This document shows positions 10,478-46,713 of a stretch of 64,000 bases of DNA, in pieces. The translations under genes were made by a program, and so were the position numbers. Numbering within the stretch: position 1 is the first letter of the stretch; each line of letters opens with the position of its first letter. Below the pieces are notes generated by a model. The model was given only the letters and a program-made list of their open reading frames with translations, had not been told where the DNA came from and did not search any database. The DNA comes from Patescibacteria group bacterium (GTDB lineage: Bacteria; Patescibacteriota; Patescibacteriia; Magasanikbacterales; GWA2-37-8), in the NCBI GenBank assembly GCA_004321885.1, contig SCQK01000013.1, positions 96,001 to 160,000 of the forward strand, read 5' to 3'.

Positions 10478-10481
10478 TAAC

Positions 10482-11987
10482 ATGTCCACCCTCTACCGCC
10501 TCTACCGCCCGCAGAAGTTCGCCGACGTGACGGGCCAAGAGCACATCATCCAAACCATAACCAACGAGATATGCGCCGCTAAAACGGCGCATGCTTATCT
10601 ATTCTCGGGCCCGCGCGGCACCGGCAAGACCACCCTGGCCCGTCTGCTGGCTAAGGCCGTGAACTGCCAAAACCGCAAAGATGGGGAATCTGAACCGTGC
10701 AATGAGTGCCCATCTTGCGCGGAAATTTCCGCCAGCCGCAATATAGACGTAATGGAAATAGACGCGGCCTCGCATACGGGCGTGGAAAATGTGCGCGAAA
10801 ATATCATAGACAGCGCGCAATTTCAGCCCACCAAATCCAAATACAAAATTTTCATCATAGACGAGGTGCACATGCTTTCCACTCCGGCTTTCAACGCCCT
10901 GCTCAAAACCCTGGAAGAGCCGCCGGCGCACGTGATTTTCGTGCTGGCCACCACCGAACTGCAAAAACTGCCGGCTACCATTGTATCGCGCTGTCAACGT
11001 TTTACCTTCAAAAAAATCGGCTTTGACCAGATGATGAGCAAACTTTTGAAAATCTGCAAAGACCAGGACGTAAAGGTGGACAAAAAAGTGCTGGAGCGGG
11101 TGATAAACAAAAGCGACGGCTGTATGCGCGACGCTGAATCCCTGCTTGGTCAAATTTTAACGTTGAATCAAAAAAATATCGGGCCCGAAGACGCGGAAAT
11201 GATTTTGCCCACGTCCAATGCGCGACAGATTTTGAATTTCGTGGATGCAATTTTGAACCGCGACGTTAAAAGCGCCGTGGCTCTGATAAACGAACTGGTT
11301 TCCGACGGCGTGAATCTGGAGCAATTCGCCTATGACGCGCTGGAAATTTTGCGCCTGCTGATGATTTTGCAATACGACCCAACCAAGGAAATTTTGGATT
11401 ACAGCGACGAAGACGCCAAACTGATTAAAAAAATGACCAAACAGGCGCCGGCCGAGCAGATTATAAAATTAACGGACGCGCTGATGGCGCGCCGAGCGCA
11501 AATTAAATCCGCGCCTATTCCCCAGCTGCCCCTGGAGCTCTTCGCCGTGGAATTCTCAAACTGTCATTCCGGACTTGATACGGAATCCATCGCCGCCAAC
11601 TGTCATTCTGAGGCCCCGCTTAGCGGGGACGGAGAATCCCTCTCGCCATCTATCACGCAAAAAATCAAAACCACTCTGGACGAAATTAAAAACAAGTGGC
11701 ACGATATAACTGCCGGCCTCACCGAACAAAATCACTCACTCGGCTTTATCCTGAAAATGGGCGAACCGGCCAGAATGGAAGGAAATGAACTGTATTTGCG
11801 CGTGCCATTTTCCCTGCACAAAGAAAAAATTGAAGAGCAAAAAACCAAAAAATTGATAGAGGGCGCGATGACAGACGCCTTTGGGGAAAAAATTTGCCTG
11901 ATTTGCGAGGTGACGCAGGCGCAAAATGATGATGGCGAAATCACCCAGCTCGCGAGTGAATTTGGGGGTGAAGTTGTCTCACTCTAA
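10482..11987 (+). CDS. dnaX: DNA polymerase III subunit gamma/tau
   Basis: YRPQKFADVTGQEHI, AHAYLFSGPRGTGKTT, Zn module CNECPSC, box IFIIDEVHML; carries an in-frame repeat insertion at 11555-11613. Confidence 0.9.
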   Translation: MSTLYRLYRPQKFADVTGQEHIIQTITNEICAAKTAHAYLFSGPRGTGKTTLARLLAKAVNCQNRKDGESEPCNECPSCAEISASRNIDVMEIDAASHTGVENVRENIIDSAQFQPTKSKYKIFIIDEVHMLSTPAFNALLKTLEEPPAHVIFVLATTELQKLPATIVSRCQRFTFKKIGFDQMMSKLLKICKDQDVKVDKKVLERVINKSDGCMRDAESLLGQILTLNQKNIGPEDAEMILPTSNARQILNFVDAILNRDVKSAVALINELVSDGVNLEQFAYDALEILRLLMILQYDPTKEILDYSDEDAKLIKKMTKQAPAEQIIKLTDALMARRAQIKSAPIPQLPLELFAVEFSNCHSGLDTESIAANCHSEAPLSGDGESLSPSITQKIKTTLDEIKNKWHDITAGLTEQNHSLGFILKMGEPARMEGNELYLRVPFSLHKEKIEEQKTKKLIEGAMTDAFGEKICLICEVTQAQNDDGEITQLASEFGGEVVSL

Positions 11988-12933: not shown

Positions 12934-13644
12934 ATGAAGATCGTCATTGTAATTCCCACATACAACGAAAGGAAGAACATCTCCAAACTAACCGAGAAAA
13001 TTTTTGCTTTGCGAATTGACGGGCTGGAAATGATCGTAGTGGACGACGGCTCGCCCGACGGAACCGGCGACAAGGTAAAAAAATTGGGCGAACGATTTCC
13101 GGTGACCCTGCTGGCGCGCGAAAAAAAACGCGGACTCGGTTCGGCTTACCTCGCCGGATTCAAGAAAGCCCTGGAAATGGGGGCTGATTTTATTTTTGAA
13201 ATGGACGCGGATTTGTCGCACGACCCCGACGACGTGCCAAGATTACTGGAGCCGTGCCTGGACGGCGCCGATTTGGCCATCGGCTCGCGCCGGGTGGCCG
13301 GCGGAAAGATTATCGGATGGGGCTGGGCGCGCAAATTCATGAGCGCCGGAGCCATGCGGCTGTCGCGCCTGATACTTCAATTAAAAAACAAAGACGTTAC
13401 CTCCGGCTTCAGATGTTGGCGCCGCGAAGCGCTTTTAAGAATTGACTTGGACAAAATCAAAAGCAACGGCTACGCTTTTCAGGAAGAAATACTCTGGCGC
13501 GCCCAGCAGGCGGGCCTGAAAATTGCCGAGGTACCGGTAATTTTTGTTGACCGCGAAGAAGGCAAATCCAAACTGGGCTGGAGAGAGGTATTGGAATTTT
13601 TTAAAGTAATGCTGTCATTGCGAGCGAAGCGAAGCAATCCCTAA
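12934..13644 (+). CDS. GT2 family dolichyl/polyprenyl-phosphate mannose (or glucose) synthase-like glycosyltransferase
   Basis: VVIPTYNE, VVDDGSPDGT, DAD motif, Dpm1-like fold; the C-terminal 11 aa are read from a family-B repeat. Confidence 0.8.
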   Translation: MKIVIVIPTYNERKNISKLTEKIFALRIDGLEMIVVDDGSPDGTGDKVKKLGERFPVTLLAREKKRGLGSAYLAGFKKALEMGADFIFEMDADLSHDPDDVPRLLEPCLDGADLAIGSRRVAGGKIIGWGWARKFMSAGAMRLSRLILQLKNKDVTSGFRCWRREALLRIDLDKIKSNGYAFQEEILWRAQQAGLKIAEVPVIFVDREEGKSKLGWREVLEFFKVMLSLRAKRSNP

Positions 13645-14709: not shown

Positions 14710-15312
14710 TCATCGCGCCGACGAGAACTGATAAACCAAACCCGGATTCTGATACTTCCCCGACGGGTCGCGGTAGCCGAGCTCGCTCCGGCCAGCCTTG
14801 GCGAGCGTCTCGGCAAAGAGATCGACGACAACCTCCTCGCCGCCCTCACCGGCAACCACCACCCAGGTGTAGCCAAATCCGAGGCCCGGCAGCATCTTGC
14901 CGCACGCCCTGGCCTGCAACCCCGCCTCCATCAGCAAGACAAACAGATAGGCGTGATAGTACCGGCAGCACGCTATGGCATGGCTGAGCGCGAATGACAG
15001 TTTGGCCTGCTCCGGCGAGGGCGAGAACACGAATCTGTGATACGTCTGGCGCGCATCCTCGTCCAGCTTCGTGTCGTTAGCCAGAACCACCGCGTTATGC
15101 GGCAACGCGGCGAGCACGAGGGTCTTTACCGCCGCAAGTCGCGCGCCGATGCCCTGCGGAGAGCTGGCTTGTTCCCGCGCCAGCCGCAGATGACATCCTA
15201 TGAAGCGGTACTCGTCATCCATCTGCACGTCGAAGATGTTCTCTCCCACCCACTGTCGCCTCGCCTCAACGACCTGGGGCTTCCCGTTGTCTGCCTGCCC
15301 GTTGTCTGACAT
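14710..15312 (-). CDS. hypothetical protein in a GC-rich (about 60%) island
   Basis: 200-aa ORF with high third-position GC, unlike its neighbours; no recognisable domain. Confidence 0.35.
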   Translation of the reverse strand: MSDNGQADNGKPQVVEARRQWVGENIFDVQMDDEYRFIGCHLRLAREQASSPQGIGARLAAVKTLVLAALPHNAVVLANDTKLDEDARQTYHRFVFSPSPEQAKLSFALSHAIACCRYYHAYLFVLLMEAGLQARACGKMLPGLGFGYTWVVVAGEGGEEVVVDLFAETLAKAGRSELGYRDPSGKYQNPGLVYQFSSAR

Positions 15313-21840: not shown

Positions 21841-21967
21841 ATAATCTAATCGCTGTCATTGCGAGCGAGCCACAAGCGAGCGCGGCAATCCCTTCCGTGT
21901 TTGGGATTGCTTCGCCCCTTCGGGGCTCGCAATGACATTTAAGTTTCAAAATAATTTTTACCTGTTT

Positions 21968-23201: not shown

Positions 23202-26156
23202 TTACTGGCCGTGACAGCGCTTGTATTTCTTCCCGCTGCCGCAAGGGCAAGGGTCGTTGCGGCCCACCACTTTGCCGGCCTCGTCGCGCACTTTTTTCCC
23301 GGCCGGCGCGGCGCCGTTGTCGCTGGTCTTGCTGGCCCCGCTAAACATCAGATTCCCCGCCTGCATCACCGACGGCGCTATCTGTATTCCCAAATTTACT
23401 TTATAAACCAAATACACCACTTCTTTTTGAATGTAATTAAGCAGTTCGTTGAACATCCGGTAGGTTTCTTTTTTGTATTCCACCAGCGGGTCGTGCTGGG
23501 CATAGCCGCGCAGGCCAATGCCGGTGCGCAAATAATCCACGGCCACCAAATGTTCCACCCACAGATTGTCTATGGCGCGCAGCAATACTTGTTTTTCTAT
23601 CTCGGCCATCATCTCGGGCGGGGCTTGTTTGACCAGCAGTTCCTCGTATTTATACTTGGCCGTTTCTATCAAAAATTCTATGAGTTGCGTCCTAATCGTA
23701 ACATCATCAACCCGCCCGCCCACCGGCGGGGCGCCAAATTCTCCGATTTTTTTCTTTTCATCGTCAGACAGCGGGAAAATGGTCGTCATTGTTTCGGCAA
23801 TTTCTTTCACATTCCAGTCACTGCGGTCTTCGGCGTTGGTATGGAACGAAACCACCTCTTCAATTTCCTGTTCTATCATTTCCAAAATCATGACGCGCAA
23901 ATTTTTTACCCCCTCTTTCGTCTCCCCCTTATCAAGGGGGAGAGAAGCGGTGGACGTCTCCGCCATATCACGAGAGAGAGAAGCGGTTGATTCAAAAGCG
24001 CGCAATACCTCGCGCCGTTTGCCGTAAATCACCTCGCGGTGCTTGTTGAGCACGTCATCGTACTCCAGCAAATGTTTGCGCGTGTCAAAATGCAAACCCT
24101 CCACTTTGCGCTGGGCGCTTTCTATAATGCGCGTAATCATCCCCTGCTCTATGGGCATGTCATCTGGCACTTTAAGGGCGTTCATTACCCCGCGTATTCT
24201 GTCGCCGGCAAAAATACGCATCAGGTCGTCTTCGGTGGAAAGGAAAAATTGCGACTGCCCCGGGTCGCCCTGGCGCCCGCTGCGGCCGCGCAACTGGTTG
24301 TCTATACGCCGGCTCTCGTGGCGCTCGGTGCCCAGCACAAACAAACCGCCGGCCGCGCGCACGCGCCCGGCTTCTTCGGGTACAGGCGGATTACCGCCCA
24401 AAATTATATCCACTCCCCTGCCGGCCATGTTGGTGGCCAGGGTCACGCGCCCGGGCTGGCCGGCCTGCGCGATTATCTCGCCCTCGCGCTCATGATTCTT
24501 GGCGTTTAGAATTTCATGCGCTATTCCCTCTCTTTGCAAATGCAAACTCAAGGCCTCGTTTTTCTCCACTGATACCGTGCCTATCAAAACCGGCTGGCCC
24601 TTGGCCTGTAATTCTTTTACCATCTGGGCGATGGCCTTGTGCTTGGCCTCTTCGGTTTTATAAATCCTGTCCGGAAAATTCGTGCGCTGGCTGGGTTTGT
24701 TCGGCGGAATTACCACCACTTCCAGTTTGTAAATTTTGCCGAACTCTTCGGCCTCGGTGACGGCCGTGCCGGTCATGCCCGACAGCTTTTCGTACAAACG
24801 GAAATAATTTTGAAAAGTAACCGTGGCCATGGTCTGACTTTCATGTTGAATGACCACGTTTTCTTTGGCTTCTATGGCCTGATGCAAGCCCTCGCTATAG
24901 CGGCGGCCCGGCATTTTGCGGCCGGTAAATTCGTCCACTATGAGCACCTCGCTGTTTTCCACGATATAGTCGCGGTCGCGCAAGAAAAGCGTCTGCGCCC
25001 GCAAAGCCTGCTCCACGTGGTGCACGGTACGCACCCCGCCCTCGGCGTAAATATTGTCCACGCCCAGCCATTTTTCCATTTTAGCGATGCCGGCTTCGGA
25101 AAGCGTGGCCGAGCGCATTTTTTCGTCTATGTTAAAGTCCTCGTTTTCTTTCAAGCGGCGCACCAGCTCGGCGAATTTGTAATACATGTCGGCCGCTTTT
25201 TCGGCCGGCGCGGAAATAATCAAGGGGGTGCGGGCTTCGTCTATTAAAATGGAGTCAACCTCGTCCACGATGGCGTAAAAAAACGGCCGCTGTACCATCT
25301 CGCTCAAATTTTGCACCATGTTGTCGCGCAAATAATCAAAGCCATATTCGTTGTTGGTGCCATAAGTGACGTCGCAGCCGTAGGCCTCTTGGCGCGAGCA
25401 GGGTTCCAAAAATTCCGTTTCCACTTTGTACATTCCTTTGGCGTCGCGTTCTTTGTCTGCTTCACTGCCCTCCTGTAACCCCACCCCCTGCCACCACACC
25501 AAAGATTTTGGTGTGGTGGCCTGCCCATCCCCTAATAGGGGAGGGGTTTTTGCGTAGCGAAAAGAAACACCAAGCTGTTGAATCACGCCCACGCTCAATC
25601 CCAAAGCATCATATATCTGCCCCATCCACACAGCGTCGCGTTTGGCCAAATAATCATTCACAGTCACCACGTGCACTCCCCTGCCGGCCAAGCCGTTTAG
25701 ATACACAGGCAAGGTAGCCACCAGGGTTTTGCCCTCGCCAGTGCCCATCTCAGCGATAGCGCCGCTATGCAAAGCCATGCCGCCCTTTAGCTGGACGTCA
25801 AAATGGCGCATACCAGTCAAACGTTTTGATGTTTCGCGCACCACGGCAAACGCCTCGGGCAAAATATCGTCCAGGGTGGCGCCGTCGGCCAAACGCTTTT
25901 TGAACTCATCGGTTTTGCCCCGCAACTGTTCCAAACTCAAAGACGCCATCCCGCTTTCCAGGGCATTGATTCTTTCCACGAGCGGCTTGTATCCGGCAAT
26001 CACTTTCGCATTCGGGTCGCCAAAAATTCTGCTAAAAAAAGACATAGAACCACTAATCTTTTTCGCTAATCTCACTAATCGCGAACGCCGTAATTCTATC
26101 ATATTTACGCGGAAAAGCAAGGGGTCGCGCGGTACACTGGCTCGCGCGATGAACAA
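23202..26156 (-). CDS. secA: preprotein translocase ATPase SecA
   Basis: DEAD motor motifs, TYGTNNEYGFDYLRDNM, C-terminal Zn finger CPCGSGKKYKRCHG; carries two in-frame repeat-derived insertions (23908-23986, 25468-25538). Confidence 0.95.
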   Translation of the reverse strand: MFIARASVPRDPLLFRVNMIELRRSRLVRLAKKISGSMSFFSRIFGDPNAKVIAGYKPLVERINALESGMASLSLEQLRGKTDEFKKRLADGATLDDILPEAFAVVRETSKRLTGMRHFDVQLKGGMALHSGAIAEMGTGEGKTLVATLPVYLNGLAGRGVHVVTVNDYLAKRDAVWMGQIYDALGLSVGVIQQLGVSFRYAKTPPLLGDGQATTPKSLVWWQGVGLQEGSEADKERDAKGMYKVETEFLEPCSRQEAYGCDVTYGTNNEYGFDYLRDNMVQNLSEMVQRPFFYAIVDEVDSILIDEARTPLIISAPAEKAADMYYKFAELVRRLKENEDFNIDEKMRSATLSEAGIAKMEKWLGVDNIYAEGGVRTVHHVEQALRAQTLFLRDRDYIVENSEVLIVDEFTGRKMPGRRYSEGLHQAIEAKENVVIQHESQTMATVTFQNYFRLYEKLSGMTGTAVTEAEEFGKIYKLEVVVIPPNKPSQRTNFPDRIYKTEEAKHKAIAQMVKELQAKGQPVLIGTVSVEKNEALSLHLQREGIAHEILNAKNHEREGEIIAQAGQPGRVTLATNMAGRGVDIILGGNPPVPEEAGRVRAAGGLFVLGTERHESRRIDNQLRGRSGRQGDPGQSQFFLSTEDDLMRIFAGDRIRGVMNALKVPDDMPIEQGMITRIIESAQRKVEGLHFDTRKHLLEYDDVLNKHREVIYGKRREVLRAFESTASLSRDMAETSTASLPLDKGETKEGVKNLRVMILEMIEQEIEEVVSFHTNAEDRSDWNVKEIAETMTTIFPLSDDEKKKIGEFGAPPVGGRVDDVTIRTQLIEFLIETAKYKYEELLVKQAPPEMMAEIEKQVLLRAIDNLWVEHLVAVDYLRTGIGLRGYAQHDPLVEYKKETYRMFNELLNYIQKEVVYLVYKVNLGIQIAPSVMQAGNLMFSGASKTSDNGAAPAGKKVRDEAGKVVGRNDPCPCGSGKKYKRCHGQ
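25468..25538. repeat. family-D CCCCTCCC...GGGAGGGG element with a CCACCACACCAAA-N-TTTGGTGTGGTGG core
   Basis: near-identical copy at 46641-46706; long copy 33832-33952; shorter CCCCTCC..GGAGGGG copies 2084-2120, 16096-16143, 23908-23986, 32401-32436, 39687-39733, 40690-40723, 47323-47364, 51559-51597, 57288-57324, 58103-58140. Confidence 0.85.
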
Positions 26157-26176
26157 ATTTATGCTATAATATCCCC

Positions 26177-27898
26177 ATGGCCGAAAACATCTTTTTGCAA
26201 ATAAGCCTGCTGTTGGCCCTCACGGTGGGCGCGGCTTTCATTCTGCGCCTCCTGCGCCAGCCCCTGATTATCGCTTACCTGGCCGTGGGCGTGCTGGCCG
26301 GCCCCATGTTTTTCAATCTGCTCAAAGGCGGGGCAAATGTTTACGACGCGTTCGCCAAAATCGGCGTGGTGCTTTTGCTGTTTGTCGTGGGCCTCAATCT
26401 CAATCTCGGCTATCTCAAAAAAATCGGCAAAGTGGCCATCATCACCGGCCTGGCCCAGGTTACGCTCACCGCTCTCATCGGCATGGCCATCTTGCAGGCG
26501 CTCAAATTTTCCCTGCTCTCTTCCATCTATCTGGCCGTCGCCATCACCTTTTCTTCCACCATCATCATCACCAAGCTGCTCAATGAAAAAAAACACACTG
26601 AAAGCATGTACGGCCGCTATGTCATCGGCCTGATGCTGATGCAGGATTTTGTCGCCATTATTATAATGATGATTCTGGGCATCACCCGCCAGCAGGCCGA
26701 ATTTTCCGCCGGCGCGCCCCTGGCCCTGAAAATTATTTTTCTGGCTGGCTTTATTCTGGCTCTAACAAAATACATTGCCCCCGCCATCTTAAAACGCGTG
26801 GCCGACTCCGGGGAATTTTTGTTTGTCTTTACCCTGGCCTGGTGCCTGGGCATCGCCAGCATCACCTATTGGCTGGGCTTTCCGGTGGAAGTCGGGGCCA
26901 TCATCGCCGGCCTCACCCTGGGCTCAACGCCCTATCAGCCAGAAATTTCCAGCCGCGTCAAACCATTGCGCGATTTTTTCATTGTTTTGTTTTTCATCAT
27001 TCTGGGCGGCAGTTTGGAGCTAAACAATTTGCGCGCTTCCCTCGCGCCCGGCCTCATTCTTTCGCTTTATATCCTCATTGGCAACCCGCTCATTCTTTAC
27101 ATCCTTTATCGCCTGCACAAATTCAACCGTCGCAACAGCTTTTTATCGGCCCTTACCGCGGCCCAGGTGAGCGAGTTCGGCTTTATATTGCTTTACACCG
27201 GCGCCGGCATCGGCCACCTGGGGAAAAACGAGATTCCTGTTTTTACTCTGGTTGCCTTAATCACAATCTTCATTTCTTCCTACCTTATTACTTACAATGA
27301 AAGAATTTATCATTTTTTGAAGCCGTTTTTTGCCCTGTTCGGCAAAGACAACCGAACGCAAAAAGAAGACGATGCCGCCTCTTATGATGTCTGGGTCTTC
27401 GGCTATCATCGCATCGGCTGGAAGGTTTGCGAAGCATTGATTGAAAAAAAGATTAAATTCGCGGTGGTGGATTACAATCCGGAAATTATTTCCAAATTAA
27501 AAAAACGCGGGGTGCCCAGTTATTTCGGCGATGCCTCGGATATAGAATTTTTAGACGCCTTGCCTCTGGGCGAGGCTAAACTTATTATTTCCACTTTGCC
27601 CACGGTAGAAGACCAGCGCGCCCTGATAGCGCATGTAAAGCACAACGGCAAAATTAGACGCGGGCGGGCGCGCCAGGCCCCGTTTTTCATCGCCAGCTTG
27701 TACGACGACGCCTACCTACAGGAGCTGTATGAAATGGGCGCGGATTATGTGATGATGCCGCATCTGCTGGGCGGCCAGCGCATTTACGATGTTTTGAAAC
27801 GCGGGCATTGGGCCAAAGAAGGCTTGAAAAAATTAAGGCAGTACCAAAAAGACGAGCATAATTCGCGCTTTGAGGCGCTGGGCGCCCGCCATTGTTAA
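26177..27898 (+). CDS. CPA2-family cation:proton antiporter (KefB/KefC-like) with a C-terminal TrkA-N/RCK domain
   Basis: 12-13 TM Na/H-exchanger core followed by a Rossmann-like VWVFGYHRIGWKVCEAL...VVDYNPE segment. Confidence 0.8.
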   Translation: MAENIFLQISLLLALTVGAAFILRLLRQPLIIAYLAVGVLAGPMFFNLLKGGANVYDAFAKIGVVLLLFVVGLNLNLGYLKKIGKVAIITGLAQVTLTALIGMAILQALKFSLLSSIYLAVAITFSSTIIITKLLNEKKHTESMYGRYVIGLMLMQDFVAIIIMMILGITRQQAEFSAGAPLALKIIFLAGFILALTKYIAPAILKRVADSGEFLFVFTLAWCLGIASITYWLGFPVEVGAIIAGLTLGSTPYQPEISSRVKPLRDFFIVLFFIILGGSLELNNLRASLAPGLILSLYILIGNPLILYILYRLHKFNRRNSFLSALTAAQVSEFGFILLYTGAGIGHLGKNEIPVFTLVALITIFISSYLITYNERIYHFLKPFFALFGKDNRTQKEDDAASYDVWVFGYHRIGWKVCEALIEKKIKFAVVDYNPEIISKLKKRGVPSYFGDASDIEFLDALPLGEAKLIISTLPTVEDQRALIAHVKHNGKIRRGRARQAPFFIASLYDDAYLQELYEMGADYVMMPHLLGGQRIYDVLKRGHWAKEGLKKLRQYQKDEHNSRFEALGARHC

Positions 27899-27958
27899 GT
27901 TTTGAATATTAAAAACTCGCACACGAAAACATAGAAAAAGATATCCACAGCCCCGCGC

Positions 27959-27987
27959 TTGACACTAAGCGGGGTGTAAAGTATCAT
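27959..27987 (+). promoter_or_regulatory. consensus sigma70 promoter TTGACA-17-TATCAT
   Basis: near-perfect hexamers with a 17-nt spacer about 110 nt upstream of the 28102 ORF, followed by a structured leader. Confidence 0.5.
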
Positions 27988-28101
27988 ATACCGGCTTCGG
28001 AAAGTGGTAACGGGCCCATCCGTCGGTTGACGGAGAATTAGGGCTACGTGCCAATCCTCTAAAGCCCTCGCATGAGCGAGGCAACGAACAAGGAGAGACG
28101 G

Positions 28102-28485
28102 ATGGAAACCAAGACGCAGAAGGGGAACCTCGCCGTGCCCGTCATCGCCCCCGACACGGACCAGCTCCAAAAGGCAATCTTCACGCACGAGCCCACCCCG
28201 ATCGTCTACAAGAACGAGAAGGGCGAGCTGGTGCGCTGCTGGGCGGCCTTCAACGCCGTCCACGCCGAGACCGCCGACAAGAGCGTGTTCGTGCTGCGGG
28301 GCAAGATCGTGGCCGGCGACGCGAACTTCCTGCGCGCGCACGAGAACGCGGTGCGCCGGAACTACGAGGCGTCCCTCATCTACAAGCTCGGGCAGGACTA
28401 CGCCCAGCTGGAGATGTGGGACAAGTCCGGCAAGGACGAGATCCCGCCGGGCACGTTCTCGAGCGACGACCACCGCGCGCGATAG
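28102..28485 (+). CDS. hypothetical protein in a GC-rich (about 62%) cassette (start chosen at METKT after AAGGAGAGACGG; ORF-track start 28072)
   Basis: strong SD 7 nt upstream; high GC3 codon usage unlike the rest of the window. Confidence 0.45.
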   Translation: METKTQKGNLAVPVIAPDTDQLQKAIFTHEPTPIVYKNEKGELVRCWAAFNAVHAETADKSVFVLRGKIVAGDANFLRAHENAVRRNYEASLIYKLGQDYAQLEMWDKSGKDEIPPGTFSSDDHRAR

Positions 28486-28637
28486 CGCCACCGACAGAAC
28501 CACGGCGCTAACCGCAACCGCACATTCCCACCAGTCGTCCCCTCCCCAATTCGGGACGCATCTCACAGTAGACTGTGAACCCCATCGCGACACGCGTCGC
28601 GGTAGCGCGGTTCCCTCTGCGAGACACAACACAAGAG

Positions 28638-28670
28638 GCCCGACCCAGCAACAGCAGGTCGGTCTTTTTC
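28638..28670 (+). terminator. intrinsic terminator (GCCCGACC-CAGCAACAGCA-GGTCGG-TCTTTTT)
   Basis: GC-rich stem followed by a T-run about 150 nt after the 28485 stop. Confidence 0.6.
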
Positions 28671-28735
28671 GTTTACAAAAAACCCCGCTCATTGCGGGGT
28701 CTATAGCTTTATAACTTGATAACTTTCTACTTCAA

Positions 28736-29377
28736 TCACGGTTCCACCAAAATCTGCGCCGCGCCGCCGCCATCGCACGTGATGAAGAACTTGCCCACAT
28801 ACTTGGCCGTGGCAATGGCGAAACCGTATTTGGGCACATAGTACGACTGCTTGCCGAAAGCAACGGTGTGCGCCTTGGCATCGCGGTTGTCCAGCATAAA
28901 CTGCTTGCCTTTTTTCATGGTCAAAGACCCGGGCGTGCCTTTGCATTTATAAAACTGATAATAATACCCGGATTTGCGATAGATACTTAAAGCCTTAGTG
29001 TAACTTAATGTGGCCGAAGGGCTGACGCCTGTTTTAGCGCCAGTACCCGTAACACCACCTGTGCCTGGCACCGTGGATGCGGCGGTAGTGGCGGTAGTGG
29101 CGGTTTTATCCGTGGACGGCTGTTCCCCTGCCTCGGTAGTGGTCGCGGTCTGCTCTTCGCCCGGCGCCGGACTGACGGCCGGTTTCTTGCCCCATTTATT
29201 CCAGGCCAGCAAAGCCACCACAATCGCCACAATCACGATAATTGTGGGCAGATTGCCTTTTTTGTCCGCCGGCGGCGCTTCGGGCGCCGACTGCCCGCCT
29301 GTTGGCGGGTTTCCCGCTCCGCCAACTGGCGGATTGGTATTTTGGTTGTCCATAAAGTCAAAAATTACATTACTCAC
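28736..29377 (-). CDS. membrane-anchored secreted hypothetical protein with a P/T/G-rich linker
   Basis: N-terminal TM IIVIVAIVVALLAW, low-complexity linker, C-terminal roughly 100-aa globular domain. Confidence 0.5.
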   Translation of the reverse strand: MSNVIFDFMDNQNTNPPVGGAGNPPTGGQSAPEAPPADKKGNLPTIIVIVAIVVALLAWNKWGKKPAVSPAPGEEQTATTTEAGEQPSTDKTATTATTAASTVPGTGGVTGTGAKTGVSPSATLSYTKALSIYRKSGYYYQFYKCKGTPGSLTMKKGKQFMLDNRDAKAHTVAFGKQSYYVPKYGFAIATAKYVGKFFITCDGGGAAQILVEP

Positions 29378-29453
29378 ACTTTCCCTCCGCTATCATCAAT
29401 ATACCCCAACCCGCTCAAAAAGTCAACGATTGCGGGATCCCCGCCGCGTTTAC

Positions 29454-29479
29454 AAAAAATCCCCGACTTAGCCGGGAAT
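29454..29479 (-). terminator. hairpin plus U-run downstream of tRNA-Trp (family-E CCCGACTTAGCCGGG hairpin)
   Basis: minus-strand RNA TCCCG-GCTAAGT-CGGGA-TTTTTT. Confidence 0.45.
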
Positions 29480-29489
29480 TTTTTACTTG

Positions 29490-29560
29490 CAGGGGCTGAG
29501 GGAATCGGACCCCCAACTTCTCTTTTGGAGAGAGGTGTTATACCACTTAACTAAGCCCCC
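29490..29560 (-). tRNA. tRNA-Trp (anticodon CCA)
   Basis: GGGGGCT..GTTA-AGTGGTA-TAAC..CCTCT-CTCCAAA-AGAGA..GGGGG-TCCGATT-CCCTC-AGCCCCT-G; discriminator G73 and a wobble 1:72 pair as in E. coli tRNA-Trp. Confidence 0.8.
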
Positions 29561-29577
29561 GAGAGGGGCGGCTCTTA

Positions 29578-29733
29578 TTATTTCGTCTCTTTGTGCATGG
29601 TATGTTTTTTGCAATGCCGGCAGAATTTTTTCATCTCCAAGCGGTTTTTGAGAGTTTTTTTGTTGCGGGTGCTGAAATAATTCGCGCGCTTGCATTGCGA
29701 GCATTCCAACTTGGCCAAATTATCTTGAGACAT
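29578..29733 (-). CDS. rpmG: 50S ribosomal protein L33 (missed by the ORF track, under 60 aa)
   Basis: [51 protein letters not shown]: Zn-ribbon CxxC...CxxC and the L33 consensus. Confidence 0.85.
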
Positions 29734-29755
29734 AATAAAATATTAGGCTTGGTGG

Positions 29756-29784
29756 AGTGTAGCACACTTCACGCGAATTGTCAA
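29756..29784 (-). promoter_or_regulatory. sigma70-like promoter TTGACA-17-TACACT upstream of rpmG
   Basis: minus-strand hexamers with a 17-nt spacer about 20 nt upstream of the rpmG ATG. Confidence 0.5.
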
Positions 29785-30022
29785 AATTATTTCCCTCTTG
29801 ACAACTCATACACAGGAGGTATGATAAAAGTAGACGAACCTTTTATTTCATACTGTATGGGGACGCGAAAGTGCGGGCGCGCCTAGGCTAACCGAGGCGC
29901 CTCTTTACAAGGAACCGCTGGCTGAAAAACAACCGGTTCGGGGCAAGAGTCCCGAAACAAGCGCTTGGCGCACGGATTGTTTTTCAACCCCAGGTCGGCT
30001 GGGTCTGCCCGCAGTGTAGAGT

Positions 30023-30051
30023 TAAAAACAGTCCCGACTTAGTCGGGACTG
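30023..30051 (-). terminator. intrinsic terminator after tRNA-Thr(GGU) (CAGTCCCGA-CTAAG-TCGGGACTG-TTTTT)
   Basis: perfect 9-bp stem plus a U-run immediately 3' of the tRNA. Confidence 0.5.
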
Positions 30052-30061
30052 TTTTGGCGCG

Positions 30062-30323
30062 AGCCGATGAGCGGATTTGAACCGCTGACCACCTCCTTCG
30101 CTTATACTTTATATTGCTATAAAGACTAGACTGTATCTTTGGCTTATCCTTTACCGGACTTAGCCACCCTTGTCAGTCGTTCGCCCGCGATTAGCGGGAC
30201 GGTCTTGTCCCAATTTATTTAGGGATATTAACCGTTATTCGGGATTCACCACGATGTTTCCATCGTGATGGGCGAGGCTTGCGGCTCACCATGGAGGTGC
30301 TCTACCAACTGAGCTACATCGGC
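30062..30323 (-). tRNA. tRNA-Thr (anticodon GGT) interrupted between nt 36/37 by a 189-nt intron (exons 30288-30323 and 30062-30098)
   Basis: joined exons give GCCGATGTAGCTCAGTTGGTAGAGCACCTCCATGGT|AAGGAGGTGGTCAGCGGTTCAAATCCGCTCATCGGCT, a canonical cloverleaf very close to E. coli tRNA-Thr(GGU). Confidence 0.75.
30099..30287 (-). ncRNA. group I-like self-splicing intron in the tRNA-Thr(GGU) anticodon loop
   Basis: 5' exon ends in U, intron ends in G; P1 can form with a U-G wobble (AUGGU|GAG with CUCGCC(C)AU); P2 hairpin CACGAUG-GAAA-CAUCGUG; internal ACAAGACCGUC resembles the Tetrahymena P3/P4 segment GCAAGACCGUC; ACAGUCUAGUC is a P7-like element. Confidence 0.6.
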
Positions 30324-30328: not shown

Positions 30329-30988
30329 CTAATTTTTTTTATTTTCCAAAATCCTCATTAATTCATCTCTCATTTTTTTATTATGGTAATAAACTGTTAA
30401 AACTCCATGTCTACTTTTTTCGCGATAAGTACCTTTTCTAACAGACATTGTTATCGTGCTTTTGTAAAATTGATTTTTATTTACCTTTATTTGCCCCTTC
30501 CAAAACCTTAGCGCTTCAGTCACTGAAATGTCATTGAATAACTGAAGGCTAAACTTAAGGTCTTTTCTTCTAATGGAAAAAAATTTAACTAAAAAGTCAA
30601 TAAATTTCTTGACCAATCTTGGGTCAGTATTTCCCAACCTAACTGTGCATTTATCCGCTTTTGTTCCCTCCCCCCAGTATAACCCAAGTCCAAAACCATA
30701 TAAAATTCCCTCTTTTAATGTATGTGGATACTTTATGACAAATGGATCACCGTTTGGGTTATTTTTTTTGTAAATAGCTTCACTGATAGATCTACACGTA
30801 ATCGAATATTTTTCCATCCAATAACGTATTTTATTTACTGAACATTCGAAAATATTGGCAATTTCTTGTGCCGACTTTCCCTGATTTTGATATAATTTTT
30901 GCAAAACACCTTTGCTTATCATATCACAAATTATATCATAGCCGACTGAATAGTACAAGTAACCCCAAGTAGATAATATGGTTGTCAA
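30329..30988 (-). CDS. HTH-containing protein with a degenerate LAGLIDADG-like motif; putative free-standing homing endonuclease between two intron-containing tRNA genes (TTG start)
   Basis: N-terminal HTH (SAQEIANIFECSVNKIRYWMEKY); ILYGFGLGLYWGEGTKADKCTVRLGNTD resembles the single-motif LAGLIDADG core; the ORF opens inside the tRNA-Tyr 3' exon and ends 6 nt before tRNA-Thr. Confidence 0.4.
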   Translation of the reverse strand: MTTILSTWGYLYYSVGYDIICDMISKGVLQKLYQNQGKSAQEIANIFECSVNKIRYWMEKYSITCRSISEAIYKKNNPNGDPFVIKYPHTLKEGILYGFGLGLYWGEGTKADKCTVRLGNTDPRLVKKFIDFLVKFFSIRRKDLKFSLQLFNDISVTEALRFWKGQIKVNKNQFYKSTITMSVRKGTYREKSRHGVLTVYYHNKKMRDELMRILENKKN

Positions 30989-30997: not shown

Positions 30998-31291
30998 TGG
31001 GTGGAGTAGGATTCGAACCTACGAAGGCAGAGCCAGCAGATTTCATTTATCCAAAAGTTTCCTTCTAGCATGGACTATATCTTTATCCTATCCGCCAATC
31101 TGGCCGATAGGATACTCTGGTATCTAGTCTCTACGGCGCCCCCGACTTTGCCGGGGTTCCCACGGTATTAGCATGCCCGCCAGTTGGCGGATTTAGCTTT
31201 CACCGTTATCCCAGAGAGTTCATCCTAAAGTTACCTTTAGGAGCTGCGTTTCAACACAGTCTGCTCCAGTTGACCACTTTGGTATCCACCC
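30998..31291 (-). tRNA. tRNA-Tyr (anticodon GTA) interrupted between nt 35/36 by a 212-nt group I intron (exons 31256-31291 and 30998-31043)
   Basis: joined exons GGGTGGATACCAAAGTGGTCAACTGGAGCAGACTGT|AAATCTGCTGGCTCTGCCTTCGTAGGTTCGAATCCTACTCCACCCA: type-II tRNA with a long variable arm and an anticodon loop CUGUAAA identical to E. coli tRNA-Tyr. Confidence 0.8.
31044..31255 (-). ncRNA. group I intron (IC3-like, Azoarcus/cyanobacterial tRNA-intron type) in the tRNA-Tyr anticodon loop
   Basis: contains GUAGAGACUAGA, identical to the P7/P3 core of the Azoarcus tRNA-Ile intron; P3-like GCUAAAUCCGCC; 5' exon ends in U and the intron ends in G. Confidence 0.7.
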
Positions 31292-31310
31292 ATCTTCTTA
31301 AATTTTCTTG

Positions 31311-31382
31311 AGCCGCCTCAGGGATTCGGACCCTGGACCTACGGTTTACAAAACCGTTGCTCTACCGCTGAGCTAAGGCGGC
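31311..31382 (-). tRNA. tRNA-Thr (anticodon TGT)
   Basis: GCCGCCT-TA-GCTC-AGCGGTA-GAGC-A-ACGGT-TTTGTAA-ACCGT-AGGTC-CAGGG-TCCGAAT-CCCTG-AGGCGGC-T. Confidence 0.85.
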
Positions 31383-32382: not shown

Positions 32383-32393
32383 AACAAAGTACT

Positions 32394-33194
32394 TTACTTT
32401 TCCCTCCCTTTTATAAGGGGAGGGGCAGGGAGGGGTAGAACAGCATTCTTCGCGATGTCCAGCCATGTTTCCAGCTTGGCCGAAGCGCCCCCCACCAGCA
32501 CGCCGGAAACGTTCTCGCATTTCAGGTAGCCGGCGATGTTTTCCGGCCGCACGCTGCCGCCGTACAAAATTATTACAGCAGCCGCAGGCAAAAGTTCAAC
32601 GGCCAATTTATCTATAAAATTGTGCGCCACGGCGCAGGCCTCCGTATCATCGCAAGCGTTGCCGGTGCCAATGGCCCATACCGGTTCGTAGGCGATAAAA
32701 AGCGGCCTTTCGTCTTCTTTCGGCCAGGCCAAATTTTGCAAAGCGGCCCGAAGTTGGATTTCCAAAACTTCCTCTGTCTTACCCTCTTCTCTTTCCTTGG
32801 CTGTCTCGCCCACACACAGCACGGGCGTGAGTCCGGCTGCCAAAATCGCTTCCAATTTTTGCCTCACTTCATGATTGCTTTCGCCAAATTGATGCCGGCG
32901 CTCGGAGTGGCCGACCAGCGCGTATTCGCAACCGGCCGCCTGAAACATCTGGGCCGAAACTTCGCCGGTGTAGCCGCCCTTGTCCACCCAATAAACGTTT
33001 TGCGCGCCCACGCCGATGCCGGCGTCGCGCAGTACCTGGCCAGCGCTGTATAAAGAAAGCGCGCTTGGAAAAACAGTCATTTTCACGTTCGTCGGAAATT
33101 TTTCCGCCTCGCCGGCCAAAGCGTTGGCCAAAATATTGCTCTCGTCAAAATCCAAATACATTTTCCAGTTGGCGAAAAGATAAATTTGTTTCAT
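32394..33194 (-). CDS. tpiA: triosephosphate isomerase
   Basis: FANWKMY, VGHSERR, AYEPVWAIGTG, GGS...N; the C-terminal tail PLPAPPLIKGREK is encoded by a family-D repeat. Confidence 0.9.
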   Translation of the reverse strand: MKQIYLFANWKMYLDFDESNILANALAGEAEKFPTNVKMTVFPSALSLYSAGQVLRDAGIGVGAQNVYWVDKGGYTGEVSAQMFQAAGCEYALVGHSERRHQFGESNHEVRQKLEAILAAGLTPVLCVGETAKEREEGKTEEVLEIQLRAALQNLAWPKEDERPLFIAYEPVWAIGTGNACDDTEACAVAHNFIDKLAVELLPAAAVIILYGGSVRPENIAGYLKCENVSGVLVGGASAKLETWLDIAKNAVLPLPAPPLIKGREK

Positions 33195-34579
33195 ACGAGT
33201 AATTTCAAAATTTCTTCTTTTGATTTCGGCCCGATTACCGCCAACCGCATTCGCTTCCAATCAAAAAATCTTCGTGCCGCGCCACGCACCTGCCCGGCCG
33301 TAACGCGCTCTATTTTTTCCAACTGCTGTTCCGGCGTCTCTATTTTATCAGCGAACCAGTGCTGGCGCGCGAACCACTCGGCCACGGCGCTGGAATTTTC
33401 CATGGATAGCGCCATGCGGCCCGAAATGTTTGTTTTGGCGTCGTCTAATTCTTTTTTGCTGATGCCTTTATCCGCAATTTTTTTCAGTTCGCTTTTAATT
33501 ACCGAAAGCGCTTCGCCCAGCCGGTTGGAATCCAAACCAGCGTTAATGGTGATAACGCCGGTTTCGTTGTGGCTGACCCCGCCGGCGTGAATCATATAGG
33601 CCAATCCCCTTTTCTCGCGCACCTCCACGAACAAACGTGAACTCATGCCGGAGCCGAGCACGGTAAGCAATACCGCGTTCGCGTACCTGATAGGATCGTT
33701 GTAGGCGAAACCCGCGAACCCCATCACAACGTGCGACTGATCTATTTTTCTCTGTTCAACGCTAACCCGTTTTTCCAACGGCAATTCGCCCGCCGGCCAG
33801 CTGAATTTTATAAAATTTTCTTTGTTGAAATACCCCTCCTTCCCGCTCCCCTTTATAAGGGGAGGGAAACTATCGGCAGTTCCTCCCCCTTGATAAGGGG
33901 GAGGCTCGCCACCACACCAAATGCTTTGGTGTGGTGGCGAGGAGGGGGTATTCGCGAAATACTTCGCGGCCAACTTTTTTATTTTTTCCCGCGGCGCGTT
34001 GCCCGACACCGCCAGCGCCATATTCGCGGGCGTGTAAGCATTTTTGTAATACGCGAACAGCTCGTCCCGCGTAATATTTTTTACTGTCTCGGCCGTGCCG
34101 GCCACATCCCGCCCCAGTGGATTGCCGCCAAACACCGTGCGGTCAAAAACCAGCTCCACGGCCATGCTCGGATTATCTTCATACATCTTTATTTCTTCGG
34201 CAATCACTCCCCGCTCTTTGGTGATTTCTTTTTCGTCAAAAGTGGAATCAAAGAGCATGTCCGCCAAAATATCAAAAGCCAATTCCACCCGCCGGCCGTC
34301 TATTTTAATATAATAGCCGGTATAATCCTTGTAGGTAAAGGCGTTATAATCCGCGCCCACCGCGTCCAACTCGCGCGAAATATGCTGGGCCGTGGGACGT
34401 TTTTTTGTTCCTTTGAACATCAGATGCTCCACAAAGTGCGAAGCCCCGGAAATTTTCGCTGTCTCATAGCGCGAACCCACCGGCAATAAAACCATCACCG
34501 TGACGGCTTTGGTGCCGCCCGTCGGCGCCGTGATTAGCGACAAGCCATTTTTTAATTTTGATAGCCGATGCATAATCAC
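33191..34579 (-). CDS. M16 family zinc metallopeptidase (insulinase-like)
   Basis: HxxEH inverzincin motif HFVEHLMFKGT; two-domain M16 fold; carries a roughly 35-aa in-frame repeat insertion (33832-33952). Confidence 0.8.
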   Translation of the reverse strand: MIMHRLSKLKNGLSLITAPTGGTKAVTVMVLLPVGSRYETAKISGASHFVEHLMFKGTKKRPTAQHISRELDAVGADYNAFTYKDYTGYYIKIDGRRVELAFDILADMLFDSTFDEKEITKERGVIAEEIKMYEDNPSMAVELVFDRTVFGGNPLGRDVAGTAETVKNITRDELFAYYKNAYTPANMALAVSGNAPREKIKKLAAKYFANTPSSPPHQSIWCGGEPPPYQGGGTADSFPPLIKGSGKEGYFNKENFIKFSWPAGELPLEKRVSVEQRKIDQSHVVMGFAGFAYNDPIRYANAVLLTVLGSGMSSRLFVEVREKRGLAYMIHAGGVSHNETGVITINAGLDSNRLGEALSVIKSELKKIADKGISKKELDDAKTNISGRMALSMENSSAVAEWFARQHWFADKIETPEQQLEKIERVTAGQVRGAARRFFDWKRMRLAVIGPKSKEEILKLLV

Positions 34580-36310: not shown

Positions 36311-37234
36311 TTATAATACAATCTTATCTATTTGCTTGCTTAAATTTTTTCCACTAGACATAAACTTTAACGTTGCGAGCAAATCTGTTTGTGTTTGTGA
36401 CAACTTTTCACCTAAAATTTTATCTTGTTTGAATTTACCCGTATTTTCGCCATTTTTTTTCCGTTCTTTAAATGTTTTTGAGACGAAATGTTTGCCTAAT
36501 TCCTCCAATAACGTCGCTCTTTCATTCTCACAATTTTTTATCCTTTCTTCGGCCATTGAATTATAATCCTCCGAAATTTCTATTCCTAAATAATCGCAAC
36601 CCAATAATTTAGCCGCAACTAAAGTTGAACCGCTTCCCGAATATGGATCCAAGACAACCCCTCTTTTTCCGTCTAAAACCGAAAAAATTGCTCTTGCCGG
36701 CAGAATCATCGGAAATGGCGCGGGATGATTCACACATCGTTCCGGTGGAAATCGCCAAATAGACGTTAGTAAAGCATGTCTTGAGGCCAACTCCTCACCA
36801 ATTTTATTACCTGCGGGCTTATGCAACCAGTAAATACGTTCATCTACCTGCCAGAATCGCCATCCTCTGATATTGGCTGCTATCATTCTATCCCAAATTA
36901 TTTCCTGGCGCATGGTCCAATCCGATTTAGATAGCCAACTAATTGGATGTATCATCTCACCTTTTTCCCATCTCACTTTATGATTATAAAAAAAAGATCC
37001 GCCCGGTTTCGTTATACGAAAAATTTCGTTTAAAATTTCAACCTGTTCGTTTTGATACTCTTCTTCATTCTTGGCGTCACTAATCGCATTATACAAAACA
37101 TTTTTTACAAGCCAACCCTTATTTTTTTCCTTTTTATTATAAGGGGGTGAAGTAACGCAAACATCTATGATATTTGAATCAATCGTCTTTAAAATATCTA
37201 ATGTATTACCTTGTAAAATCTGATTGACTCTCAT
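36311..37234 (-). CDS. beta-class N4-cytosine/N6-adenine DNA methyltransferase
   Basis: motif IV SPPY near the N-terminus and motif I VVLDPYSGSGST near the C-terminus (circularly permuted beta class); AT-rich gene. Confidence 0.85.
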   Translation of the reverse strand: MRVNQILQGNTLDILKTIDSNIIDVCVTSPPYNKKEKNKGWLVKNVLYNAISDAKNEEEYQNEQVEILNEIFRITKPGGSFFYNHKVRWEKGEMIHPISWLSKSDWTMRQEIIWDRMIAANIRGWRFWQVDERIYWLHKPAGNKIGEELASRHALLTSIWRFPPERCVNHPAPFPMILPARAIFSVLDGKRGVVLDPYSGSGSTLVAAKLLGCDYLGIEISEDYNSMAEERIKNCENERATLLEELGKHFVSKTFKERKKNGENTGKFKQDKILGEKLSQTQTDLLATLKFMSSGKNLSKQIDKIVL

Positions 37235-37908
37235 TTTGCCTTTTCGGTTAAAAAATTATAAAATTTTCCGTTAAAATTGGAACGATTATCTTTTAGAGCC
37301 TTTACGTTAATATAAACGATTTTTAATTTTTTGCAATTTTGATAATCCCGAAAACCAAAGGAAGCACTTCGTAAAAAAGTCCCCTTCTCTCGACTCTTAT
37401 TTTTGAATCTTTTCTTTAATTTAAGCTTCAAACAGCTTGTAAATCCCTCGTTACAAAAAGGAAATTCCAAAATATAAATTAATTGCCCGTCAATAAAACC
37501 GCTAACCAAAATGTTTAGATTTGCCGCTAAATCTTTTTTAAGCCGCTCCGGTGTATAATCAGTGAAATTGCCACCTCCGTCAAGTTTTCTCGGCGTCTTA
37601 CGATTATTATTATCGCCGGTACAAATATTTCTCGGTTTTGCTTCACAAGCAATAAATTCACCGCCGATACTCACACTTTGTTTAAAACCATTGTAACCTA
37701 TTTTTTTGTTGCTGTGCGTATAGCCAGCCAAAGTTATCGTAATGAATTCTCTAATAGTAGAAGAATTTTTATCATTTATATAAATGGTAAGCAAATCATT
37801 AAATAACGATATTAAATCATCTTTAGATTTATCCAACAAAAGAGCATTCAACTCCTTATGCGGTTTGGTGGCGTATGTAATTAAAATATCAGATAACGCG
37901 TTATTCAT
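37231..37908 (-). CDS. putative type II restriction endonuclease (PD-(D/E)xK-like) cognate to the adjacent methyltransferase
   Basis: 4-nt overlap with the MTase gene; very AT-rich; candidate E-x-K in GGEFIACEAKP; no similarity to housekeeping proteins. Confidence 0.5.
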   Translation of the reverse strand: MNNALSDILITYATKPHKELNALLLDKSKDDLISLFNDLLTIYINDKNSSTIREFITITLAGYTHSNKKIGYNGFKQSVSIGGEFIACEAKPRNICTGDNNNRKTPRKLDGGGNFTDYTPERLKKDLAANLNILVSGFIDGQLIYILEFPFCNEGFTSCLKLKLKKRFKNKSREKGTFLRSASFGFRDYQNCKKLKIVYINVKALKDNRSNFNGKFYNFLTEKAK

Positions 37909-37919
37909 AAGCAGAAAAT

Positions 37920-38468
37920 TTACACCGTATTTATCTCCCCCTCTTTTTTCTCCCCCACTTCCTCAATTTTCTCGTTAAATTCTTTCACCATCTTGTCCAG
38001 CTCCTCCTGCAAGCGAAATTTTTCGTCTTCGCCGATTTCCTTGTCCGCCTCGGCCTGTTTCACCATCTCTTTGATTTCCTCGCGTGTCTTGCGCACGGAA
38101 ATGCGCGCCTGCTCTAATTTTTGGTGTAAAACTTTTATCAACTCGGCGCGGCGCTCGGTGGTGAGCTCGGGTAAAAATATGCGCACCGAATTGCCGTTGT
38201 TGACCGGATTTAACCCCAGCCCGCTGTCGCGCACCGCTTTTTCAATCGCGGCCAGCACGCTCTTATCCCACGGTTCTATGTTCACCGTCTTCTGGTCGGG
38301 CACAGTAATGGACGCCATTGCTTTTACCGGCTGTTTCACGCCATAAGCCTCTACCTGAATATCTTCCACGATAGCCGTGGAGGCGCGGCCCGTGCGCAAG
38401 CCAGACACGTCTTTTTTCAGGAACTCCACTATCTGGTCAAAGTCCGATTTGAAGTCATTGATGTTCAT
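37920..38468 (-). CDS. frr: ribosome recycling factor
   Basis: full-length RRF consensus (VSGLRTGRAS, VEAYG, ITVPDQ). Confidence 0.9.
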   Translation of the reverse strand: MNINDFKSDFDQIVEFLKKDVSGLRTGRASTAIVEDIQVEAYGVKQPVKAMASITVPDQKTVNIEPWDKSVLAAIEKAVRDSGLGLNPVNNGNSVRIFLPELTTERRAELIKVLHQKLEQARISVRKTREEIKEMVKQAEADKEIGEDEKFRLQEELDKMVKEFNEKIEEVGEKKEGEINTV

Positions 38469-40637: not shown

Positions 40638-40732
40638 ATAAACATTTTACCAAAAAAACACAGAACTGGCAATGACAGCGACATTGCTACCCCTCCCAAC
40701 CCTCCCCTTATCAAAGGGAGGGATTATAGGGA

Positions 40733-46632: not shown

Positions 46633-46713
46633 AAAAAAAACCCACCCCCTGCCACCACACCAAAATCTTTGGTGTGGTGGCCTGCCCCTCCCCTAATAGG
46701 GGAGGGTAGCTCG

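Follow-up and report, generated by a model that had tools for sequence, protein, structure and literature searches.

A self-contained GC-rich gene cassette of probable lateral origin in the core chromosome of a Magasanikbacteria-like bacterium

Between a Kef-type antiporter gene and a convergent gene of a patescibacterial chromosome lies a segment of only ~720 bp that differs in composition from its neighbors and appears to carry one complete gene together with its own expression signals. This locus raises two questions: whether the segment is a genuine gene of this organism, and how a gene of such composition came to lie where it does. The window that we analyzed is a stretch of 64,000 nucleotides (assembly GCA_004321885.1, contig SCQK01000013.1, positions 96,001 to 160,000 of the forward strand), and all coordinates below refer to it. 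The host is Magasanikbacteria-like, with kef homologues that are 56-58% identical and one at 68%, and the surroundings of the cassette (secA, the Kef-type antiporter, a surface-protein-like gene, tRNA-Trp and L33) form a core chromosomal neighborhood. The whole cassette lies in a spacer of 837 nt that runs from the kef stop codon to the terminator of a convergent gene of 213 aa, and it is framed by the following features.

26177-27898, plus strand: Kef-type cation/proton antiporter gene (kef), with Pfam Na_H_Exchanger and TrkA_N
27951-27974, plus strand: hairpin CCCCGC-12 nt-GCGGGG, 3' of the kef stop codon (dG -14.3 kcal/mol, z -1.9)
28670-28705, minus strand: host terminator module of the convergent gene, consisting of CGTTTACAAAAAA and a CCCCGC/GCGGGG hairpin with a minus-strand U-run (dG -17.1 kcal/mol, z -4.2)
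28736-29377, minus strand: convergent 213-aa gene

On its right side, the atypical segment adjoins the host terminator module. We placed this edge at ~28669 because the module starts four bases on and recurs in the window, the 13-mer CGTTTACAAAAAA and a hairpin being found again at 29447-29476, downstream of tRNA-Trp. The module lies outside the cassette and marks its boundary. On the kef side, the loop of the hairpin at 27951-27974 contains the -35 hexamer of the promoter listed below and no T-run follows its stem; this element is possibly the 3' hairpin of kef.

Within these limits, we were able to locate every signal of a one-gene unit from promoter to terminator, as a sequence-only reading of the locus had proposed when it described a self-contained cassette. 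These signals, and an open reading frame (ORF) on the opposite strand, are listed here.

27959-27987, plus strand: sigma-70-type promoter-like site TTGACA-17-TATCAT, a sequence match at 11 of 12 consensus positions
27990-28101, plus strand: 5' untranslated leader of ~110 nt, with local hairpins and with the Shine-Dalgarno (SD) site unpaired in the predicted fold
28102-28485, plus strand: ORF encoding an orphan protein of 127 aa, also annotated by NCBI (TAN33049.1 / EPN28_03555)
28486-28633, plus strand: C-rich, G-poor structured 3'UTR (z -4.5; 0/200 dinucleotide shuffles fold as well)
28634-28667, plus strand: intrinsic-terminator-like hairpin (dG -15.9 kcal/mol, z -4.1), with a T-run at 28663-28669; UCUUUUU follows
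27895-28692, minus strand: antisense ORF of 265 codons, without a coding signature (GC1 0.74 > GC3 0.57)

The promoter-like site and the strong SD before the ATG at 28102 both lie where the sequence-only reading had put them. The promoter-like site was the top-scoring of six when 27000-29500 was scanned, and transcription would start near 27990-27994. The SD sequence AAGGAG occupies 28090-28095, six bases upstream of the ATG, and a crude scan found a 5-mer SD core for 7 of 54 ORFs. If translation began at the in-frame ATG at 28072 instead, the protein would have 137 aa, but no SD precedes that codon. The same reading had set these "E. coli-like" signals apart from those of the surroundings. 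Given how few ORFs share the SD core, this holds for the strong SD but not for the promoter, as five further 11/12 sigma-70-like sites occur in the 64-kb window, several of them ahead of host genes and including the L10 leader region. As these host sites match sigma-70 equally well, a promoter of this type is not foreign to the host. The description of the leader as structured fared less well: hairpins are present, with predicted helices at 28019-28034 and 28067-28080 (P>0.95), yet the stability of the leader is within chance (z -1.6; 18/200 shuffles fold equally well).

At the other end of the unit, the coding sequence closes with TAG at 28483-28485, and 185 nt lie between the stop codon and the end of the atypical segment. 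The intrinsic terminator claimed at 28638-28670 was recovered as the hairpin at 28634-28667 with its T-run, although a simple terminator scanner overlooked the structure at 28634-28669 because its loop is longer than the 8-nt limit of that scanner.

The ORF itself has a GC content of 0.66, with values of 0.62, 0.39 and 0.97 at the first, second and third codon positions (GC1, GC2 and GC3). T is absent from the third position of all 127 codons, and A occupies it in four. The ORF and its very high GC3 had been noted before, whereas the overall GC content, given as about 62%, was too low. Host ORFs typically have a GC3 of 0.54-0.70, and those of 200 codons or more reach 0.78 at most; the ORF at 28102-28485 ranks first for GC3 among the window ORFs of at least 60 codons. 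Third-position GC remains at 0.90-1.00 from 28102 to ~28460 and then falls to 0.50-0.65 past the stop codon. Since this periodicity of three bases does not extend beyond the ORF, we treated the ORF as truly coding. The cassette region is also one of three tetranucleotide outlier islands in the window, at ~4.4 SD above the window mean, and the other two are AT-rich. Together with the GC3 values, this bears out the claim that the unit differs in composition from its neighboring genes. AT-rich sequence in the window includes an island with a DNA methylase and, near the group I intron, a single ORF.

Other measures of the same gene resemble those of the host. Scored against host usage, the ORF has a codon index of 0.70, compared with 0.69 ± 0.05 for the host; the index is average because the host, too, favors G/C-ending codons. 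The ORF draws on both C- and G-ending synonyms and does not settle on one optimal codon per amino acid. The encoded protein has FYMINK and GARP fractions of 0.26 and 0.28 (host, 0.29 and 0.26), and it contains 10 Lys and 7 Arg. Genomes of ~70% GC have a FYMINK near 0.15 and a GARP near 0.40. The host-like amino-acid make-up therefore weakens the idea of a high-GC donor, with the proviso that a single small protein can stray from such averages.

The antisense ORF had been dismissed as a GC artefact by the sequence-only reading, and our analysis agrees. Besides its lack of a coding signature, it has no SD ahead of its ATG, and a search for homologues of the 265-aa product, made to allow for the annotation of that strand elsewhere, found none. 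As the first codon position of the antisense frame faces the third position of the sense frame, no antisense stops arise inside the gene, and we judge the ORF to be a by-product of a sense strand that is short of A at third positions and of T overall. Across both UTRs, the antisense frame passes ten possible stop triplets, none of which is in frame; this is mildly unexpected (p ~0.02).

The 127-aa protein has no signal peptide and no membrane or hydrophobic segment, as in a soluble protein. Both structure models had low confidence (pLDDT 46.6 for the full protein and 52.7 for its core); they suggest a small beta-sheet together with two helices, one short and one long. A Foldseek search of the PDB with the first model returned nothing at E<=0.001, and Hfq-like and PAS-like Foldseek matches were set aside for their low probability. 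We likewise discarded a topology resembling leviviral coat proteins (a helix, five strands and a long helix), which comes from an unreliable model and has no sequence support. The protein matches none of the known anti-phage defense proteins in PADLOC. As a guess made with low confidence, by analogy with the free-standing accessory genes that mobile DNA tends to carry, it might act in phage conflict or in interaction with a host.

We searched widely for relatives of this protein. It matched itself alone both in a word-indexed search of 5.8 billion clusters and in a phmmer search of 1.84 billion representatives, and neither ~15 billion proteins nor the six-frame searches yielded a homologue. 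Nothing under E 0.09 came from Pfam, PHROGs, PADLOC, NCBIfam or PDB sequences, and the best profile and sequence scores (IcsA at E 0.09; the ABC-3C CTD8 family, PF20284, at E 0.18 with 12.4 bits, where the cutoff is 27.6) are meaningless. There were no tblastn matches at E<=1 in phage and plasmid records, and no blastn match of the whole cassette to such records. Peptide-pattern scans of species-representative genomes, IMG/VR and JGI metagenome contigs, and exact-pattern scans for one 3'UTR segment and one leader segment, were also empty, and a literature search on run SRR8426592 and the locus tag found nothing relevant.

These results bear on the donors that had been suggested for a recently transferred gene. 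A phage or plasmid donor finds no support, as no plasmid, phage or genome match was obtained even at E<=1, and the proposal of an Actinobacteria-like donor is weakened by the host-like FYMINK, GARP and codon index and by the excess of Lys over Arg. The observation that had been named beforehand as evidence against transfer, a homologous cassette at the same locus in relatives, appeared in none of the searched collections. In the relatives that we examined, kef is followed by different, unrelated genes, and their kef genes are only 56-68% identical, too distant for an empty-site comparison.

Traces of the insertion itself were sought in the flanks. We found no integrase, transposase, mobile-element gene or attC-like site flanking the unit, and a search for a flanking direct repeat, as had been recommended, gave none that was significant by local alignment (p ~0.06-0.18). 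The two CCCCGC/GCGGGG hairpins do have a flank in common, a pattern that we derived after seeing them. Integration at tRNA-Trp was rejected for want of a copy of the tRNA 3' end on the far side. A second GC-rich orphan gene at 14710-15312 has no relatives in genome contigs, and we rejected a link between the two genes, whose proteins show no similarity. With no donor, relative or empty site found, it is the composition of the unit that points to a lateral origin.

The combination of features described above is reminiscent of a phage moron. Such a gene comes with its own promoter and terminator, is flanked by two unrelated genes and differs from them in GC content (PMC3594210). Like a moron, of which gene 15 of HK97 is an example, the cassette has its own predicted promoter (11/12 match) and its own predicted factor-independent terminator (z -4.1), and its composition differs from that of the flanking genes (GC3 0.97 vs 0.54-0.70). 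It differs from a moron in that it does not lie in a prophage: its flanks are core genes, and it has no match in PHROGs or in phage records. Morons are also recognized through related genomes that lack them, whereas the cassette could be compared only with distant kef relatives. Among Patescibacteria, islands and single genes are taken up that are reported to account for as much as 13% of genomes (PMC12455944). The cassette is similar to these in being a single acquired-looking gene, in a window that also has AT-rich islands, but it is unlike the usual Patescibacteria islands in being GC-rich, ~720 bp long and without a detectable donor, and in having a host-like protein composition. In its compact single-ORF form and structured 3' region it also resembles an integron gene cassette. 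However, integron cassettes usually have no promoter and end in an attC with a GTTRRRY core, and we rejected this identity given the promoter-like site, a 3' boundary (GTTTACA) that misfits GTTRRRY and the lack of any attC-like repeat in the window.

Considering this evidence together, we propose that the cassette is a genuine chromosomal single-gene transcription unit with moron-like architecture, and we regard a lateral origin as its most likely history; this is our favored reading, held as probable. The earlier suggestion of a recent transfer is retained insofar as an atypical, autonomous unit lies among core genes, for which lateral acquisition is plausible; the donors that were named for it are not supported.

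The alternative that survives best concerns the RNA. The fold stability of the coding region and the 3'UTR is a new observation, one that the sequence-only reading had missed, and the predicted elements are as follows.

28130-28319, plus strand: RNA domain A, a long irregular hairpin within the coding sequence (predicted helices, P 0.84-1.00)
28341-28461, plus strand: RNA domain B within the coding sequence, with a closing helix at 28341-28348 / 28454-28461 and two inner hairpins (predicted)
28483-28510, plus strand: stop-codon hairpin (predicted fold)
28536-28558, plus strand: 3'UTR hairpin with loop CUCCCCAAUUC (predicted fold)
28563-28578 and 28584-28603, plus strand: 3'UTR hairpins (predicted fold)

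We compared the coding region with three kinds of null sequence. It was more stable than dinucleotide shuffles (z -4.25; 0/100 nulls as stable), than sequences with permuted codon order, in which the periodicity is kept (z -4.26; 0/300), and than synonymous shuffles, in which the protein and the codon usage are kept (z -2.66; 1/300); this last effect is moderate, and it was examined once the strong z-score was already known. For the whole transcript, dinucleotide shuffling gave a z of -5.25 (0/20). As a control, 384-nt coding-sequence pieces from 16 host genes and the other GC-rich gene gave z values of -2.5 to +1.6, and the one exception was a piece that carries a palindromic repeat element. 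Selective pressure for RNA structure appears to act on the coding region, and the simplest interpretation of the modeled compact fold is a stable, long-lived mRNA.

This fold allows a different account of the gene, in which it is native or long resident and encodes a dual-function RNA, its G/C-ending codons having been driven by selection for compact structure and not inherited from a high-GC donor. In one example of how such an RNA could act, C-rich loops such as CUCCCC (28542-28552) would pair with G-rich ribosome-binding regions. This account seems to us unlikely, although several observations are in its favor: the host-like amino acids and average codon index, the synonymous-codon placement that favors the fold (z -2.66, 1/300), the stability of both the coding sequence (z -4.3) and the 3'UTR (z -4.5), and the use by the host of equally good sigma-70-like promoters. 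The base composition of the transcript (A 0.23, C 0.34, G 0.30, T 0.13) also agrees with it, as G is close to C and A is far above U along the whole length, UTRs included. On the other hand, a GC3 of 0.97 without T-ending codons far exceeds what pairing needs, no Rfam family matches, the absence of homologues leaves no covariation test, and the synonymous-shuffle result is moderate and post hoc. Well-known dual-function RNAs, namely RNAIII of Staphylococcus, SgrS and SR1, encode peptides of ~25-45 residues and have demonstrated targets. The cassette transcript is like them in being predicted to be highly structured, in coding for protein and in having C-rich loops in its 3' part; it differs in that its ORF has 127 codons and that the dual role is read here from the predicted fold. 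We give less credence still to the view that the codon bias is a product of selection for compact RNA instead of a donor's fingerprint and that, in this reduced CPR genome, the ~680-nt transcript serves both as the mRNA of a lineage-specific protein and as a structured RNA, which we consider doubtful.

In a second and weaker variant of this doubtful view, the gene would have been captured from the episymbiont's own putative high-GC host organism.

Any reading of the cassette as a gene of this chromosome depends on the integrity of the assembly, and the locus had also been suspected of being a contaminant or a chimeric join. On this account, ~700 bp from a co-occurring high-GC organism would have entered the sequence by mis-assembly or through a chimeric library molecule, which would agree with the sharp compositional break and with the cassette being a singleton in all databases. 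The independent Logan assembly of SRR8426592 has a record of the 137-aa form, read from the ATG at 28072, and contains a 4820-nt contig (L005) that equals window positions 25497-30316 at 100% identity, spans both junctions and has the same order as the window (secA fragment, kef, cassette, convergent gene, L33). An assembler-specific chimera is unlikely because a second pipeline reproduces both junctions, and the suspicion is not upheld by a contig identical across both of them. Because the contig may stem from the read set of the metagenome-assembled genome, it rules out an artefact of the assembler but would also be expected from a chimera formed in the library. Two further points argue against this explanation. 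The insert is exactly one complete unit between convergent genes, neither of which is damaged, which is unexpected from a random join, and all that the junctions have in common is a hairpin stem of 6+6 nt, which is not long enough to mislead a de Bruijn graph. We consider a chimera or contaminant very improbable.

Less probable again is a non-coding RNA gene or element in which the ORF is incidental, such as a tmRNA, a large structured RNA or the template of a diversity-generating retroelement. A GC-rich intergenic island with a very stable predicted fold could be read in this way, and the T-poor sequence makes open frames cheap, the +2 frame being open for 212 codons; but the extreme periodicity is confined to the ORF (GC3 0.97 vs GC2 0.39) and the SD is well spaced. 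Nor did any candidate of this kind emerge. Against Rfam 15, 27850-28760 had no match at gathering thresholds, and at E<=10 there were only terminator look-alikes of 13-22 bits. ARAGORN found no tmRNA, and no part of 27940-28700 has a second copy in the 64-kb window that could serve as a variable repeat.

An engineered or synthetic codon-optimized gene with designed expression signals would combine a promoter close to consensus, a strong SD and a clean terminator with almost only G/C-ending codons and a mid-GC amino-acid make-up, but this origin is scarcely credible for a unit that both assemblies place within an environmental CPR chromosome, has no match in the plasmid collection, mixes C- and G-ending codons and has long structured UTRs that we judge atypical of designed parts.

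For the favored reading of the cassette as a laterally acquired, autonomous unit, the layout of its signals suggests how it would work, and from them we infer that the gene is expressed. The near-consensus sigma-70 promoter would be read by the host RNA polymerase to give a transcript of ~680 nt from near 27990, and the unpaired AAGGAG at optimal spacing would allow translation of the 127-residue protein. The hairpin and U-run would end transcription four bases short of the back-to-back terminator of the convergent gene, and because of this terminator-to-terminator placement the unit would disturb neither neighbor. The structured mRNA body and the 3' hairpins may slow decay of the RNA.

If this reading is correct, the cassette adds one more case in which a streamlined CPR genome has accepted and kept a small, autonomously expressed foreign gene. 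It would be an unusually clean case, as a full promoter-to-terminator unit of ~720 bp lies inside a core chromosomal region, and it would go beyond the routine in that the island is GC-rich, where acquired orphans are usually AT-rich, and yet its protein composition is host-like, and in the apparent pressure on its coding region to fold. In practical terms, the cassette lends itself, as a well-defined candidate, to tests of expression and to tracing of its host or donor. Should the gene have been captured from the host organism of the episymbiont, it could serve as a molecular lead to that host.

Besides the cassette gene, EPN28_03555, the window carries a second GC-rich orphan gene, which we examined for resemblance to the first.

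14710-15312, minus strand: second GC-rich orphan gene, EPN28_03490 (200 aa, GC 0.62, GC3 0.78)

This gene has a promoter-like site, TTGACA-17-CATTAT, at 15370-15342 on the minus strand, and its Shine-Dalgarno (SD) context, ACAGGAGAGAGAGAAC-ATG, is similar to the ACAAGGAGAGACGG-ATG of the cassette. The EPN28_03490 protein forms a singleton cluster, with no Pfam match, no relatives in genome contigs and no similarity to the 127-aa protein of the cassette.

We also observed three kinds of repeat.

2079-2120; 23904-23945; 32386-32437; 33828-33869; 40698-40723; 47334-47364; 58100-58141: scattered intergenic CCCCTCC...GGAGGGG hairpins
25477-25545; 33878-33952; 46637-46711: palindromic repeat of ~70 nt, copies 93% identical
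11600-11640; 10442-10478; 50739-50775; 61387-61418; 13613-13641; 21881-21938; 63790-63847: short palindromic repeats of the TGTCATTCC/TGTCATTGCGAGC type

As several copies of the CCCCTCC...GGAGGGG hairpin place GAGGAGGGGGTATT immediately 5' of an ATG on the opposite strand (for example, at the genes with ends at 58123 and 51578), these hairpins may have a double role, as terminators and as SD-bearing leaders. The ~70-nt repeat has the layout GCCACCACACC...GGTGTGGTGGC followed by CCCCTCCCC...GGGGAGGG. The copy at 25477-25545 lies within the secA ORF and leaves its reading frame uninterrupted (translation ...TPPLLGDGQATTPKSLVWWQGVG...), and the copy at 33878-33952 lies within a different long ORF, for which the z-score of the RNA fold is -6.9. 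This placement inside ORFs is reminiscent of the in-frame palindromic elements of Rickettsia. The TGTCATTCC/TGTCATTGCGAGC-type short palindromes occur repeatedly throughout the 64-kb window.

Three further features, two of them AT-rich, were found on the minus strand.

36314-37962, minus strand: AT-rich island (GC 0.30-0.41) with an N6_N4 DNA methylase and a 243-aa ORF
30329-30988, minus strand: AT-rich ORF (219 aa, GC 0.32), immediately downstream of the group I intron
31051-31263, minus strand: group I intron (Rfam match, 61.7 bits)

The N6_N4 DNA methylase of the island (E 3e-29) and the adjoining 243-aa ORF, which has no Pfam match, are probably an acquired restriction-modification pair. 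The ORF at 30329-30988 is the strongest tetranucleotide outlier of the window; a Pfam search returned nothing for it at E<=0.01. Possibly this ORF is a homing-endonuclease-like gene, either novel or degenerate.

The intron appears to split a tRNA gene, and a tRNA-Thr gene (31310-31382) adjoins the region (31051-31300, minus strand). When 31264-31056 was excised in silico, ARAGORN called a tRNA-Leu(UAA) starting near 31291; alternative splice points yielded different, less plausible tRNAs. The element would be an instance of the classic intron in the anticodon loop of tRNA-Leu(UAA), in a Patescibacteria genome.
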